Below, piece by piece: positions 17,671 through 29,181 of a DNA stretch of 32,000 bases. Every line of letters starts with the position of its first letter. Position 1 is the stretch's first letter. The translations under genes were made by a program, and so were the position numbers. The notes beneath the pieces are model-generated. The model had not been told where the DNA came from. It did not search any database and saw only the letters and a program-made list of their open reading frames with translations. Source of the DNA: Patescibacteria group bacterium (lineage in GTDB: Bacteria > Patescibacteriota > Patescibacteriia > UBA2591 > UBA6264); assembly GCA_028713575.1 (NCBI GenBank), contig JAQTOB010000002.1, positions 60,001 through 92,000 of the forward strand. Direction: 5' to 3'.

Positions 17671-18306
17671 ATGAATATTAAGCCGGGAATTTTCGCCTTT
17701 TATAAGCCCAAAAAAATTTCTTCTTTTAAATTTTTGGAAAAAATAAAAAAAAATTCCAGTATTAAAAAAATTGGACATGCCGGCACTTTAGATCCTTTAG
17801 CTTGCGGTGTTTTAGTGGTTGGTTTGGGTGGAGAAAATTGTAAAAAATTGAATGAAATAGTTAAAAAAGAAAAAGAATATATTGCAATTATAAAATTGGG
17901 AATGAACAGCGTTACAGATGACGAAGAAGGAGAAAAAACAAAAATTTCGCTAAGCCAAAAGCCCGATTTGGAAAAAATTAAAAATACTTTAAACAAATTT
18001 AAAGGAGAAATAAAGCAAAAACCTCCTATTTTTAGCGCCATTAAAATCAAGGGTTTACCTGCTTATAAATTGGCACGACAAGGAAAAAAAGTTAAAATAA
18101 GGGCCAGAACAGTTGAATTAAAAGATTTTAAAATCTTAAAATATCATTGGCCCTATTTAAAAATAAAAATTATTACTGGTTCCGGATTTTATGTCCGTTC
18201 TTTGGCAAAAGATTTGGGCAGAAAATTAAAAACGGGCGCTTATTTAAAAGACTTAGAGAGAATTAGGGTAGGGGATTTTTCAAAAAATAAATGCTTGAAG
18301 ATATAA
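17671..18306 (+). CDS. truB: tRNA pseudouridine(55) synthase TruB (short form, no PUA domain)
   Basis: Catalytic motif GHAGTLDPLACGVLVVGLG, then PPIFSAIKIKGLPAYKLARQG and GFYVRSLAKDLG. Confidence 0.9.
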   Translation: MNIKPGIFAFYKPKKISSFKFLEKIKKNSSIKKIGHAGTLDPLACGVLVVGLGGENCKKLNEIVKKEKEYIAIIKLGMNSVTDDEEGEKTKISLSQKPDLEKIKNTLNKFKGEIKQKPPIFSAIKIKGLPAYKLARQGKKVKIRARTVELKDFKILKYHWPYLKIKIITGSGFYVRSLAKDLGRKLKTGAYLKDLERIRVGDFSKNKCLKI

Positions 18307-27265: not shown

Positions 27266-27817
27266 TTAAATCCTAAATTCTAAAACTGGAAATTTTTTAA
27301 TAATCGTATAAATCGGACCGCTTATTTTTAGTTCGCTTTTCATTAAATCAATTGAGGTAATAAAAAATTCTTTTTCTTCTATTTTTTGATTTAAAAAAGA
27401 ATCAGATATGCTAATAGATGTTTTTGCCCGACCGAACGTTAAATGCATTTGCCAGGGTCTTTGGTCTATTTTAAGTCCGATTTTTTTTAATTCTTGACCA
27501 ATGTTTTTTTGCAAATCAAATATTTTATGTTCCTCAACTTCTCGGCACTTAAAAAACAATATCCGCGAGAAATGCCCAATTTGCCCGATTTTTAACCTAA
27601 TTTTGTCCGAAATAACCATTTTTCTTAAAATATCTTTGACTTTTTCTATTTCCCTGTTCTCCAATTCGCCCAAAAAATGCAAAGTTAGATGAAGATTTTC
27701 TTTTTTTACCCATTTTATCCCAATTTTTATTTCCTTTTTAATTTCTTTTATTCTTTTTTCTAAAATCTCTTTTACTTCCATGGGCAAATTAACAGCAATA
27801 AAACTTCGTATTTTCAT
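27266..27817 (-). CDS. thpR: RNA 2',3'-cyclic phosphodiesterase (2H phosphoesterase, ThpR/LigT family)
   Basis: Two HxT/S motifs (HLTLHFLG and HLTFGR) at the expected spacing. N-terminal RSFIAV. 183 aa. Confidence 0.88.
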   Translation of the reverse strand: MKIRSFIAVNLPMEVKEILEKRIKEIKKEIKIGIKWVKKENLHLTLHFLGELENREIEKVKDILRKMVISDKIRLKIGQIGHFSRILFFKCREVEEHKIFDLQKNIGQELKKIGLKIDQRPWQMHLTFGRAKTSISISDSFLNQKIEEKEFFITSIDLMKSELKISGPIYTIIKKFPVLEFRI

Positions 27818-27823
27818 AAAATT

Positions 27824-27832
27824 ATTATAACA
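27824..27832 (-). promoter_or_regulatory. extended -10 element (TGtTATAAT) 6 nt upstream of the thpR ATG
   Basis: Minus strand reads TGTTATAAT-AATTTT-ATG. It sits between the upstream RNA terminator and thpR. Confidence 0.4.
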
Positions 27833-27846
27833 TTTTCTAAAATTAA

Positions 27847-27877
27847 AAGTAGTCTGAGATTAAACTCTAGACTACTT
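27847..27877 (-). terminator. intrinsic terminator of the tRNA-like RNA gene (hairpin usable on both strands)
   Basis: AAGTAGTCT-GAG / CTC-(T)-AGACTACTT gives 12 bp with one bulge and a 6-nt loop. Followed on the minus strand by UUAAUUUU. Confidence 0.6.
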
Positions 27878-27884
27878 AATTTTG

Positions 27885-28077
27885 AGGCCCTGGCTGGACT
27901 TTCACCAGCGACCCTCCTTTTTTCAACAAAACAACAATTAAGATATAGTTCCAAGATTTTGAAAAAAAATCCTAATCGTTTTGGTATCATATTACAAGGC
28001 GCTCTTAATTAGCCGGCTCCTTTTTCCGAACAACTAAGTTGGGAAAAGGCACAAAAACGAACTAAGCTATCAGGGCC
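27885..28077 (-). ncRNA. tRNA-like structured RNA: acceptor stem, T-arm, Gly(CCC)-type anticodon loop, and a 119-nt internal hairpin insertion; class unresolved
   Basis: GGCCCUG (28077-28071) pairs with CAGGGCC (27892-27886). T-arm GCUGG-UGAAAGU-CCAGC (27909-27893) abuts it directly and is preceded by GGGUC. 5' AUAGCUUAGUUCG is D-arm-like. CCUU-UUCCCAA (28049-28039) has its AAGG partner at 27919-27916. A terminator follows. See finding. Confidence 0.55.
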
Positions 28078-28143
28078 ATTTGTTTATAATTTTTTCTTTT
28101 TTTATGTTTTTGAAGAACAAATATATTTTAAATTTTTCTTCAT

Positions 28144-28172
28144 TTGTCAAGTTCTCTTTTTTTGTGTAAAAT
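28144..28172 (+). promoter_or_regulatory. candidate promoter of amrS; the -35 region is shared back-to-back with a minus-strand TTGACA
   Basis: TTGTCA (28144-28149), 17-nt spacer, TAAAAT (28167-28172), then 7 nt to the ATG at 28180. The minus strand reads TTGACA at 28150-28145, facing the tRNA-like RNA. Confidence 0.45.
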
Positions 28173-28179
28173 ATGAAAT

Positions 28180-29181
28180 ATGAAAGAGGCGTTACTTTAT
28201 AAAAAACTGAATAACAATGATGTCAAATGCCTTGTTTGTCATCATCAATGTCTGATTTCTCAGGGACAAAGAGGATTATGCGGAGTCAGGGAAAATCAAG
28301 GGGGCAAGTTATACAGTTTAGTTTATAATAAAATTATTGCTTTTCACCTTGACCCGATTGAAAAAAAACCGCTTTTCCATTTTTTACCTAACACTTATTC
28401 TTTATCTGTTGCCACTATGGGTTGTAATTTTTTTTGCCTTCATTGCCAAAATTATGATATTTCTCAAGGACTAAGAAAAAACAAAAAAATTATGGGTGAA
28501 AAAATAAGCCCGAAAAAAACCGTAAGTTTGGCTCTACAATACAAAGTTCCCAGTATTTCCTATACTTATACTGAACCGACGATTTTTCTTGAATACGCCT
28601 TAGAAACAATGAAACTGGCAAAAAAACAAGGGCTAAAAAACGTCTGGGTCAGCAACGGTTATTTTTCATCTCAAACCTTAAAACTTATCACCCCTTATCT
28701 TGACGCCATTAACATTGACCTAAAATTTTTTGATTCTAATTTTTATCAAAAAATCTGCGGAGGCAAACTAAAACCCATTTTAAATAATTTAAAATTATTG
28801 AAAAAATCAAAAATTTGGCTGGAAATAACCACTTTGTTGATTCCCGGATATACCGACAAAAACAAACAATTGGAAGAAATCGCTCTGTTTATAAAAAAAG
28901 AATTAGGAGAAGATGTCCCTTGGCATATTTCCGCTTTTTATCCTGTTTATAAAATGAATAATATATCCCCTACTCCTTTGAGGTTGATTGAAAAGGCCGT
29001 GGACATTGGGCAAAAAACCGGATTAAAATATGTTTACGCCGGCAATTTGAACATTAATGAAGATACTTTTTGTCCTCAATGTCAAAAAAAAGTGATTGAA
29101 CGAAAAAATTATAACATAAAAATTCATCTTAAAAACGATTTTTGCTCTCAATGTGGAAATAAAATTCCCGGCATATTTTAA
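28180..29181 (+). CDS. amrS: AmmeMemoRadiSam system radical SAM enzyme (PflA-like activase fold)
   Basis: N-terminal Cys cluster VKCLVCHHQCLISQGQRGLCGVREN, radical SAM CNFFCLHCQNYDIS (CxxxCxxC), and a C-terminal CPQC...CSQC ribbon. Overall pattern matches the AmrS family. Confidence 0.85.
   Translation: MKEALLYKKLNNNDVKCLVCHHQCLISQGQRGLCGVRENQGGKLYSLVYNKIIAFHLDPIEKKPLFHFLPNTYSLSVATMGCNFFCLHCQNYDISQGLRKNKKIMGEKISPKKTVSLALQYKVPSISYTYTEPTIFLEYALETMKLAKKQGLKNVWVSNGYFSSQTLKLITPYLDAINIDLKFFDSNFYQKICGGKLKPILNNLKLLKKSKIWLEITTLLIPGYTDKNKQLEEIALFIKKELGEDVPWHISAFYPVYKMNNISPTPLRLIEKAVDIGQKTGLKYVYAGNLNINEDTFCPQCQKKVIERKNYNIKIHLKNDFCSQCGNKIPGIF

Follow-up and report, generated by a model that had tools for sequence, protein, structure and literature searches.

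In a 32,000-nucleotide (nt) stretch of Patescibacteria DNA, here called the window, thpR/ligT (27266-27817, minus strand), a 2H phosphoesterase gene (Pfam LigT_PEase, E = 9.5e-18), is separated by a gap of 362 nt (27818-28179) from a divergent radical-SAM gene (28180-29181), which we call amrS and whose relatives are named AmmeMemoRadiSam enzymes. An earlier note on this DNA proposed that the minus strand of the gap encodes a highly structured RNA. We found that it does: a tRNA-shaped RNA of 193 nt (27885-28077, minus strand) runs from a first G (G1) to a discriminator-like U and has homologues in two other Patescibacteria lineages, at loci L001 and L003. Comparison of these sequences shows that the conserved architecture is a four-way junction laid out as a cloverleaf. 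The RNA is not a tRNA, an intron-bearing tRNA or a transfer-messenger RNA (tmRNA), but a non-decoding tRNA mimic. We treat thpR as a neighbor, not as part of the element.

The ends of the RNA form an acceptor-like stem of 7 base pairs (bp), P1, in which GGCCCUG (28071-28077) pairs with CAGGGCC (27886-27892), just where the earlier note had drawn it; all of its pairs are kept in the four sequences we aligned. A single U (27885) follows the 3' strand, also as noted earlier, and no CCA is encoded. Inside P1, an invariant AUA (J1/2, 28068-28070) leads into a D-stem-like helix, P2, whose strands GCUU (28064-28067) and GAGC (28001-28004) pair in every homologue; a D stem had previously been thought almost absent. 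P2 encloses H1, a hairpin of about 59 nt in the D-loop position (28005-28063), which folds through local pairing of CCUUUU with AAAAGG, CC with GG and AAC with GUU and carries an invariant GG (28014-28013) on its 3' side. The 3' strand of P2 is followed by an invariant G (28000) that resembles G26 of tRNA, and AGCGCC is invariant here in the alignment. H2 (27916-27999) takes the position of the anticodon arm. At its base CCUU (27999-27996) pairs with AAGG (27919-27916), and in the window it has an inner helix of 12 bp (27980-27969 with 27944-27933). Next come a variable-loop-like AGGGUC (27910-27915), its terminal UC invariant, and P4 (27893-27909; GCUGG-UGAAAGU-CCAGC), the T-arm-like hairpin already recognized in the earlier note, with an invariant loop. 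P4 abuts the 3' strand of P1 without a gap, and the 7-bp acceptor-like stem and 5-bp T-like arm together reproduce the 12-bp minihelix geometry of tRNA.

The folding energy of the RNA is unusual for its composition. The 206-nt stretch that we folded has a minimum free energy (MFE) of -59.3 kcal/mol (z = -3.5), none of 200 dinucleotide shuffles folded as well, and the fold is better than that of shuffles in all three lineages (z = -3.5, -3.0 and -2.6). In L003, the cloverleaf, including its D-like stem, is the unconstrained MFE structure. The earlier note had instead paired CCUU (28049-28046) over a long range with the AAGG at the base of H2. That fold reaches -51.8 kcal/mol in the window, 7.5 kcal/mol worse than the MFE, and CCUUUU (28049-28044) pairs locally with AAAAGG (28024-28019).

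Homologues and selection on the RNA

We compared 11 related amrS|thpR loci, scoring the presence of the RNA by eye and with the family covariance model R1. The RNA was present at 3 of the 11 and was absent from L005, L007, L008, L009, L135, L136, L137 and L171. ThpR is 64% identical to the window protein in L001 (genome GCA_964485025.1) and 53% identical in L003 (L003/L004 contigs). A near-identical strain variant that carries the RNA, L067, came from a metagenome pattern scan. Scores with R1 are 147 bits for the window and for L067, 149 bits for L001 and 114 bits for L003.

The homologues change how the anatomy of the RNA must be read. The earlier note described an anticodon arm of the Gly(CCC) type that is split by a 119-nt insertion. 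However, starting at the 5' end, the RNAs of L001 (130 nt) and L003 (126 nt) run collinear with the window through this supposed arm and most of the supposed insertion. They differ greatly in length at one place only, in another arm: H2 of the window and L067 contains about 63-70 nt (within roughly 27920-27995) that the other two lack, and this block leaves a 63-column gap at the H2 interior of L001 and L003 in alignments A1 and A2. H2 ranges from 18 to about 84 nt, and its loop is not conserved among lineages: it is a stem of 4 bp with a 10-nt loop in L003 (CCUU-AUGUCCCAAC-AAGG), a stem of 7 bp in L001 (CCAUCUU-UAUCAAG-AAGAAGG) and an irregular hairpin of about 84 nt in the window. H1 measures 55-60 nt across homologues, against the 7-11 nt of a normal D-loop with its G18 and G19, and keeps its place in the window, L001 and L003, with differing sequence and shape. 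The UUCCCAA (28045-28039) once taken for the Gly(CCC) anticodon loop is the unconserved tip of H1; L001 has CCCUUAACUAAC there, and the L003 sequence is unrelated. A CAAC/GUUG helix assigned to the insertion is broken in L067 by a U-to-G change at 27925. Two other ideas about these hairpins were rejected. An internal duplication as the source of the H2 expansion (AUAGCUUAGUUCGUUUUUGU versus AUAUCUUAAUUGUUGUUUUGU) is matched in score by 299 of 2000 shuffles, and for a UCCCAAC heptamer common to the H1 tip of the window and the H2 loop of L003 we estimate that about one chance match is expected at these lengths.

Conservation is concentrated in P1, J1/2, P2 and P4, which are nearly invariant or compensated across homologues. 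Our pair count took in P1, P2, the H2 base, P4 and also the terminator downstream of the RNA, 32 pairs in each of four sequences, and 99.2% of the cells held standard pairs. Both sides changed in five pairs: one in P1, two in P4 and two in the terminator. The P1 changes comprise one compensatory replacement (C-G to U-A) and one U-A to U-G, a U-G pair in P2 (GCUU/RAGC in the family) becomes U-A in L003, and P4 has the family consensus GCYRG-UGAAAGU-CYRGC, its two compensatory pairs being spread among three lineages. The variable-loop-like segment is 6-8 nt long and always ends in the UC. None of 500 shuffles matched the observed pairing values, and when the partners were slid by 1-3 columns as a control, pairing fell to 28-59%. 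Between the L001 genome and L003, the two small open reading frames (ORFs) that flank the RNA, ORF1 and ORF2, share only 45% identity, and ThpR in these two lineages is 64% and 53% identical to the window protein. Therefore, it is selection on the RNA, rather than recent transfer, that keeps P1, the junction, P2 and P4 nearly invariant. By this comparative evidence the RNA is under selection.

Two coding explanations for the conserved region were considered and rejected. A mini-ORF of 9-19 codons (GUG AAA GUC ...) lies behind a Shine-Dalgarno-like AAGGAGG in the T arm. All of the substitutions in homologues are non-synonymous in this frame and each belongs to the compensatory stem changes, and thus selection acts on pairing, not coding. 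An ORF of 58 amino acids (aa; 27814-27990, minus strand) starts in the window-specific H2 expansion and runs via the T arm and terminator into the start of thpR; neither L001 nor L003 has it, and it is probably spurious.

Wider scans for homologues used exact patterns built from conserved sequence blocks and covered one genome collection, one metagenome collection and three viral sets. The genome-collection scan with CTGATAGCTTAG...TAA...AGCGCC returned only the L001 contig and 10 chance matches. With the T-arm pattern, the metagenome scan recovered only the L003/L004 contigs and L067, the rest being mostly group-II-intron-like repeats and coding sequence. The three viral scans gave one phage pseudo-tRNA and otherwise chance matches in coding sequence. 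Either the family is rare, or it evolves quickly everywhere but in its core.

Relation to tRNA and to known tRNA-like RNAs

How much of a tRNA does this RNA retain? Its ends clearly go back to a tRNA. From sequence reading and general knowledge of tRNA, counterparts of U8, A14, G15, G26, C48, U54 and A58 are conserved, and AUAGCUUAG...AGAGCGCC...AGGUC-GCYRG fits the tRNA consensus for the D arm, position 26 and the variable loop. Like canonical tRNA-Gly(CCC), the RNA has an acceptor stem of 7 bp that bears G1-C72 and U73, a T stem of 5 bp under a 7-nt loop, a GCUU/GAGC D stem followed by G26, and an AGGUC-like variable loop. Unlike it, the RNA has a hairpin inserted in the D-loop, one extra nucleotide after the acceptor stem and UGAAAGU in place of UUCRANY, and it goes undetected by ARAGORN and the Rfam tRNA model. 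The earlier note had remarked that the T-loop departs from the UUCRA consensus, and this holds in all homologues, where UGAAAGU is invariant. No usable 7-nt anticodon loop occurs in the anticodon-arm position of any homologue. The glycine identity suggested earlier survives only in part. G1-C72 and U73 are present, but they are the only members of the bacterial Gly set that are; pairs 2-71 and 3-70 are G-C and C-G, not the C-G and G-C of that set, and the CCC loop is not conserved. The window also encodes TruB, the tRNA pseudouridine-55 synthase (17671-18306, plus strand); in this RNA, the residue that TruB would target is a G instead of a U.

We ran ARAGORN in its tRNA, tmRNA, intron and mitochondrial modes. 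It reported no tRNA or tmRNA gene in the window, and at default settings it did not call the unedited RNAs of the window, L001 and L003 either. In its low-threshold intron mode the calls contradicted one another: for the window it proposed Ser(tga) and an intron of 116 nt, for L001 Leu(taa) and an intron of 38 nt, and for L003 nothing. A tRNA-Gly(CCC) was called at default settings once 28038-27920 had been deleted in silico. That call depends on a non-conserved loop and on a deletion that the homologues do not support. The pattern recognition behind the earlier note is internally sound; the anatomy was misread. A minimal tmRNA-like molecule, also put forward there, was rejected because neither ARAGORN in tmRNA mode (-m) nor Rfam found one, pair 3-70 is C-G so that no G3-U70 exists, and homologues of 126-130 nt have no room for a tag.

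A match to a known Rfam family would have been another explanation for the helices. None was found in the whole window at gathering thresholds, and at E <= 10 the region and its L001 and L003 homologues gave only noise, with no tRNA or tmRNA among the matches. A weak plus-strand match to HPnc0260, an RNA antisense to a tRNA 3' end, arises because the 3' part of the minus strand looks tRNA-like. The T-like hairpin also gave weak matches to twister-sister (E = 0.9-5.7) and hairpin ribozymes (E = 2-5).

Several RNAs that resemble tRNA without decoding offer useful comparisons. By analogy, the present RNA would work most like pseudo-tRNAs and mascRNA-type elements and, more loosely, like the YrlA domain. 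In YrlA, the 5' and 3' ends form a Ro60-binding stem instead of an anticodon stem, and the T-loop is canonical. In the present RNA, by contrast, it is the acceptor stem that the two ends build, and the T-loop departs from the canonical form. What the two have in common is a noncoding RNA (ncRNA) of 100-200 nt with acceptor-, T- and D-like elements around a junction, and in some bacteria YrlA-type Y RNAs lie near RNA-repair genes (10.1101/312249). No TROVE/Ro60 domain was found among 29 of the 33 window ORFs of at least 100 aa, four nested opposite-strand ORFs (100-119 aa) having been left out, and no Y RNA matched in Rfam at gathering thresholds or, on the region and its homologues, at E <= 10. 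Like the present RNA, mascRNA and menRNA have a tRNA-like fold with no functional anticodon arm and form the 3' terminus of a longer RNA, in their case a long noncoding transcript (PMC8457004). They carry a processing signal for RNase P and RNase Z that was demonstrated experimentally (PMC8457004), whereas for the present RNA such processing is predicted. They also differ in being eukaryotic, about 60 nt long and equipped with a canonical T-loop (PMC8457004).

The tRNAOther of Bacillus cereus is tRNA-derived, plays no role in translation, sits at the border of a variable genomic region and is thought to act by tRNA-like recognition rather than decoding (PMC3399842). However, it is a normal-sized cloverleaf with an anticodon loop, with no sequence homology shown to the present RNA, which has a D-loop hairpin of about 55 nt, a length-variable equivalent of the anticodon arm and a UGAAAGU T-loop. 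By sequence or Rfam model the present RNA is no member of the tRNAOther, mascRNA or YrlA families, none of which is described as combining a hairpin in the D-loop with an anticodon-arm equivalent of variable length and an invariant UGAAAGU T-loop. It fits the functional class of tRNA-like or pseudo-tRNA ncRNAs, which is not a homology family: a tRNA-derived core is under selection and does not decode. Of the interpretations listed in the earlier note, a new tRNA-mimic ncRNA is the one that the evidence supports.

The phage pseudo-tRNA found in the viral scans lies on a high-GC viral contig (L010, 8951-9031; UAGCUCAGCC...AGAGCG, loop CUGUAUA), just upstream of an 85-nt tRNA-Thr that ARAGORN calls; the pseudo-tRNA itself is uncalled. 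The family covariance model matches it over its full length (E = 0.003). Along with the consensus blocks, the HPnc0260 match and the ARAGORN call on the edited sequence, this speaks for a tRNA origin of the RNA. Its T arm is GCCGG-UGAAAGU-CCGGC, its acceptor stem has only about 4 bp, and it has 25 identical nt in common with the variable loop and T arm of the L001 RNA.

Transcription unit and competing explanations

Comparison of the loci shows that the RNA forms the 3' end of a short predicted transcription unit, which begins at a conserved TTGACA/TAAAAT promoter and closes with an intrinsic terminator of its own. The TTGACA (-35, 28145-28150) had been picked out earlier and is common to relatives: the same cTTGACAaat box stands before the small-ORF cassette in L003 and L007 and before the RNA in L067. 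The -10 hexamer TAAAAT (28125-28130) was identified by sequence comparison, a promoter scan having omitted it because of its short spacer. In L003 and the L001 genome, the promoter is followed by the two small ORFs (84-86 aa and 100 aa), the RNA and the terminator, and the RNA begins 9-10 nt past the stop codon of ORF2 (100 aa). The window has lost both ORFs. What would be its 5' leader (28078-28118) ends in about 20 nt (GAAAAAAUUAUAAACAAAU), just before G1, that are homologous to the 3' end and stop of ORF2 in alignment A1. Downstream of the RNA, the terminator (27839-27877) consists of the 12-bp hairpin described in the earlier note (27877-27847) and a U/A tract, UUAAUUUU, and includes two compensatory pairs. 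A simple terminator scan missed it, as it has fewer than three G-C pairs or an interrupted T-run. L007, a locus without the RNA, has this terminator as well, downstream of its ORF1.

The gene thpR has a promoter of its own. An extended -10 element, TGtTATAAT (27824-27832), ends 6 nt before the ATG (27817), and we detected no Shine-Dalgarno sequence at thpR; the thpR mRNA therefore appears to be leaderless. The element recurs as TGTTATAAT (or GTTATAAT) upstream of thpR in L001 (381-400), L003 (2985-3003) and L007, and it is also present in L005, L008, L009 and L137, which lack the RNA. The earlier note had expected the RNA and its adjacency to thpR to be conserved in relatives. The RNA is conserved, with three compensated pairs of its own and two in the terminator, but it adjoins thpR at only 3 of the 11 loci. 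Since a promoter and a terminator lie between the genes and the RNA is missing at 8 of 11 thpR loci, the adjacency is best explained by synteny inherited within a narrow clade rather than by a functional link. The RNA is probably not a partner of ThpR, and the substrate-enzyme module once proposed is not supported.

We propose that the RNA is a lineage-restricted, functional, tRNA-derived and non-decoding mimic that is handled by tRNA enzymes, a reading we regard as reasonably probable. The acceptor/T minihelix and the junction are determinants for RNase P, 3' tRNA nucleases and the CCA-adding enzyme. Because these are the parts under selection, recognition by tRNA-handling enzymes is likely. 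In such a scheme, RNase P would cut at G1 and free the RNA from its leader or mRNA, and past U73 a 3' endonuclease and perhaps the CCA-adding enzyme would take over. This would yield a stable RNA of about 190 nt, or about 130 nt in relatives, which might serve as a tRNA decoy, as a scaffold for a tRNA-binding factor or as a processing or stability element for the upstream transcript. We also entertained a bolder version, in which the RNA would be the first of a new class of Patescibacteria adaptors that resemble tRNA but do not decode. RNase P and CCA addition would mature it, it would be charged or end-modified, and it would be a dedicated substrate or decoy for an RNA-end or tRNA-dependent enzyme (ThpR or a tRNA-dependent transferase), its expandable D- and anticodon-arm hairpins acting as protein-docking platforms. 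We consider this version speculative and give it little weight.

A number of observations count against a tRNA mimic handled by tRNA enzymes. The T-loop, UGAAAGU in all homologues, lacks U55 and C56 and retains only the equivalents of U54 and A58, and G18/G19 are displaced by the H1 hairpin; the tRNA-like elbow used by RNase P and other enzymes may not form. In the window, the cloverleaf lies 2 kcal/mol above the MFE, and a CUUAGUU/AAUUAAG pairing competes with the D stem. The element is dispensable at 8 of 11 related loci. Only three independent lineages are known to carry it, and the covariation consists of few events, with three compensated pairs in the RNA proper. Finally, expression and processing of the RNA are predicted from sequence, and the promoter spacer of the window is 14 nt, a 2-nt deletion relative to the 16 nt of L067 (1048-1075), L003 and L007, and this shortening may weaken transcription of the RNA in the window strain.

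Could the RNA act only in cis? A 3'-untranslated-region (3'-UTR) element that serves as an RNase P signal or 3' stability cap for the small-ORF mRNA, in the manner of mascRNA/MALAT1, would account for its position just past ORF2 in L001 and L003 under a common promoter and terminator, and in the window it would be a leftover, consistent with the retained ORF2 3' end and the shortened spacer. Yet the window, without either ORF, has kept every conserved position of the RNA and has an enlarged and well-paired H2. Moreover, L005 (ORF2-like) and L007 (ORF1) have plain terminators and no RNA, and thus the ORFs do not need it. We consider a purely cis-acting role unlikely, though it deserves some attention. 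It is improbable that the RNA is instead a decaying tRNA pseudogene, an option already raised in the earlier note, or an attachment-site (att) relic at the edge of a variable cargo slot, without present function. The patchy distribution of the RNA and the differing amrS|thpR cargo of relatives fit a relic, and tRNA and pseudo-tRNA genes commonly flank variable islands (PMC3399842). However, P1 and P4 changed in a compensatory manner across lineages whose flanking ORFs are 45% identical, the 16 core pairs contain no disruptive substitution, and junction and loop nucleotides are invariant next to proteins of 45-64% identity. We saw no integrase in the loci examined, and no direct repeat of the 3' half.

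A tRNA-Gly(CCC) interrupted by a 119-nt insertion or intron, with cleavage and healing coupled to the ThpR/LigT 2',3'-cyclic phosphodiesterase, is largely refuted by the comparative data, and we think it very improbable. G1-C72, U73 and the ARAGORN call on the edited sequence speak for it, as does the adjacency of the RNA to thpR in all three lineages that have it. On the other side, the inserted segments are common to homologues, the window-specific block of about 70 nt lies inside H2, no Rfam group I intron (Intron_gpI) was matched, and the energetic cost of the long-range fold, the broken CAAC/GUUG helix in L067 and the intervening terminator and thpR promoter all argue against the model. 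The junction with its invariant nucleotides could also belong to some unrecognized RNA class, such as a four-way-junction self-cleaving ribozyme (e.g. twister-sister) or a thpR riboswitch. The twister-sister and hairpin ribozyme matches point in this direction, but they span only the 19-nt hairpin and score far under gathering thresholds. A thpR riboswitch or attenuator was rejected for want of an expression platform: the terminator exists in L007 without the RNA, and thpR is preceded, past that terminator, by a promoter of its own. We give another RNA class hardly any credence.

To our knowledge, almost no ncRNAs beyond the housekeeping set have been described in Patescibacteria (candidate phyla radiation, CPR), whose genomes are tiny. 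A tRNA-derived RNA under selection, which has given up decoding and kept the acceptor/T minihelix and the junction, is a concrete candidate regulator or decoy in this group. It also indicates that a tRNA scaffold can accommodate large hairpins added to its D-loop as well as to its anticodon arm. Confined to three lineages and dispensable in close relatives, the element is rare, and the main value of our analysis is a corrected annotation: the RNA should be taken neither for an intron-bearing tRNA-Gly nor for a sign of an RNA-repair module.

Among related Patescibacteria, the amrS|thpR gap is a cargo slot whose content varies. L003 (2119-3000) and the L001 genome have the two small ORFs and the RNA there, L007 (462-883) has ORF1 only, L005 (1-3000) has two ORF2-like paralogues beside NERD and Z1 proteins, L137 (1468-2000) has a KH-domain protein, and L171 (107-3000) has a histidine kinase and a response regulator, a two-component system. 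In L135 (645-830) and L136 (992-1147), there is no cargo beyond a promoter and terminator. Members of the small-protein families lie at L003 2217-2477 and 2498-2800, L167 128-382, L005 2148-2462 and 2585-2887, and L007 552-800; the L005 copies carry CxxC...CxxC motifs. ORF1 and ORF2 (about 84 and 100 aa) match no Pfam or PHROG family, and ORF2 of L003 has no relative but itself among 5.8 billion proteins.

The P4-type hairpin is a recurrent module, seen in the phage pseudo-tRNA, in the twister-sister consensus and in group-II-intron-like repeats. The T-like hairpin GCCGGUGAAAGUCCGGC, which resembles the conserved twister-sister hairpin, was found in dozens of such repeats in metagenomes. Used as a pattern, the hairpin TCGCCGGTGAAAGTCCGGCC matched about 50 high-GC metagenome contigs (L022-L134, e.g. 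L045 1560-1680, L096 10280-10400, L026 and L034). These matches fall into three families of repeats, many of them located where a contig ends: ...GCCGTGGATAC..GGAAC-hairpin-CCGGGAGCGGGCAGCGCGCCCGGGTAGC..., ...CCCATAATGCCGTTGGAC-hairpin-GTGGGAATTGAC... and ...TATACGGTTGCTTGTC-hairpin.... A weak Rfam match of the hairpin to group-II-D1D4-4 suggests that the high-GC hairpin repeats may be the 5' regions of group II introns.

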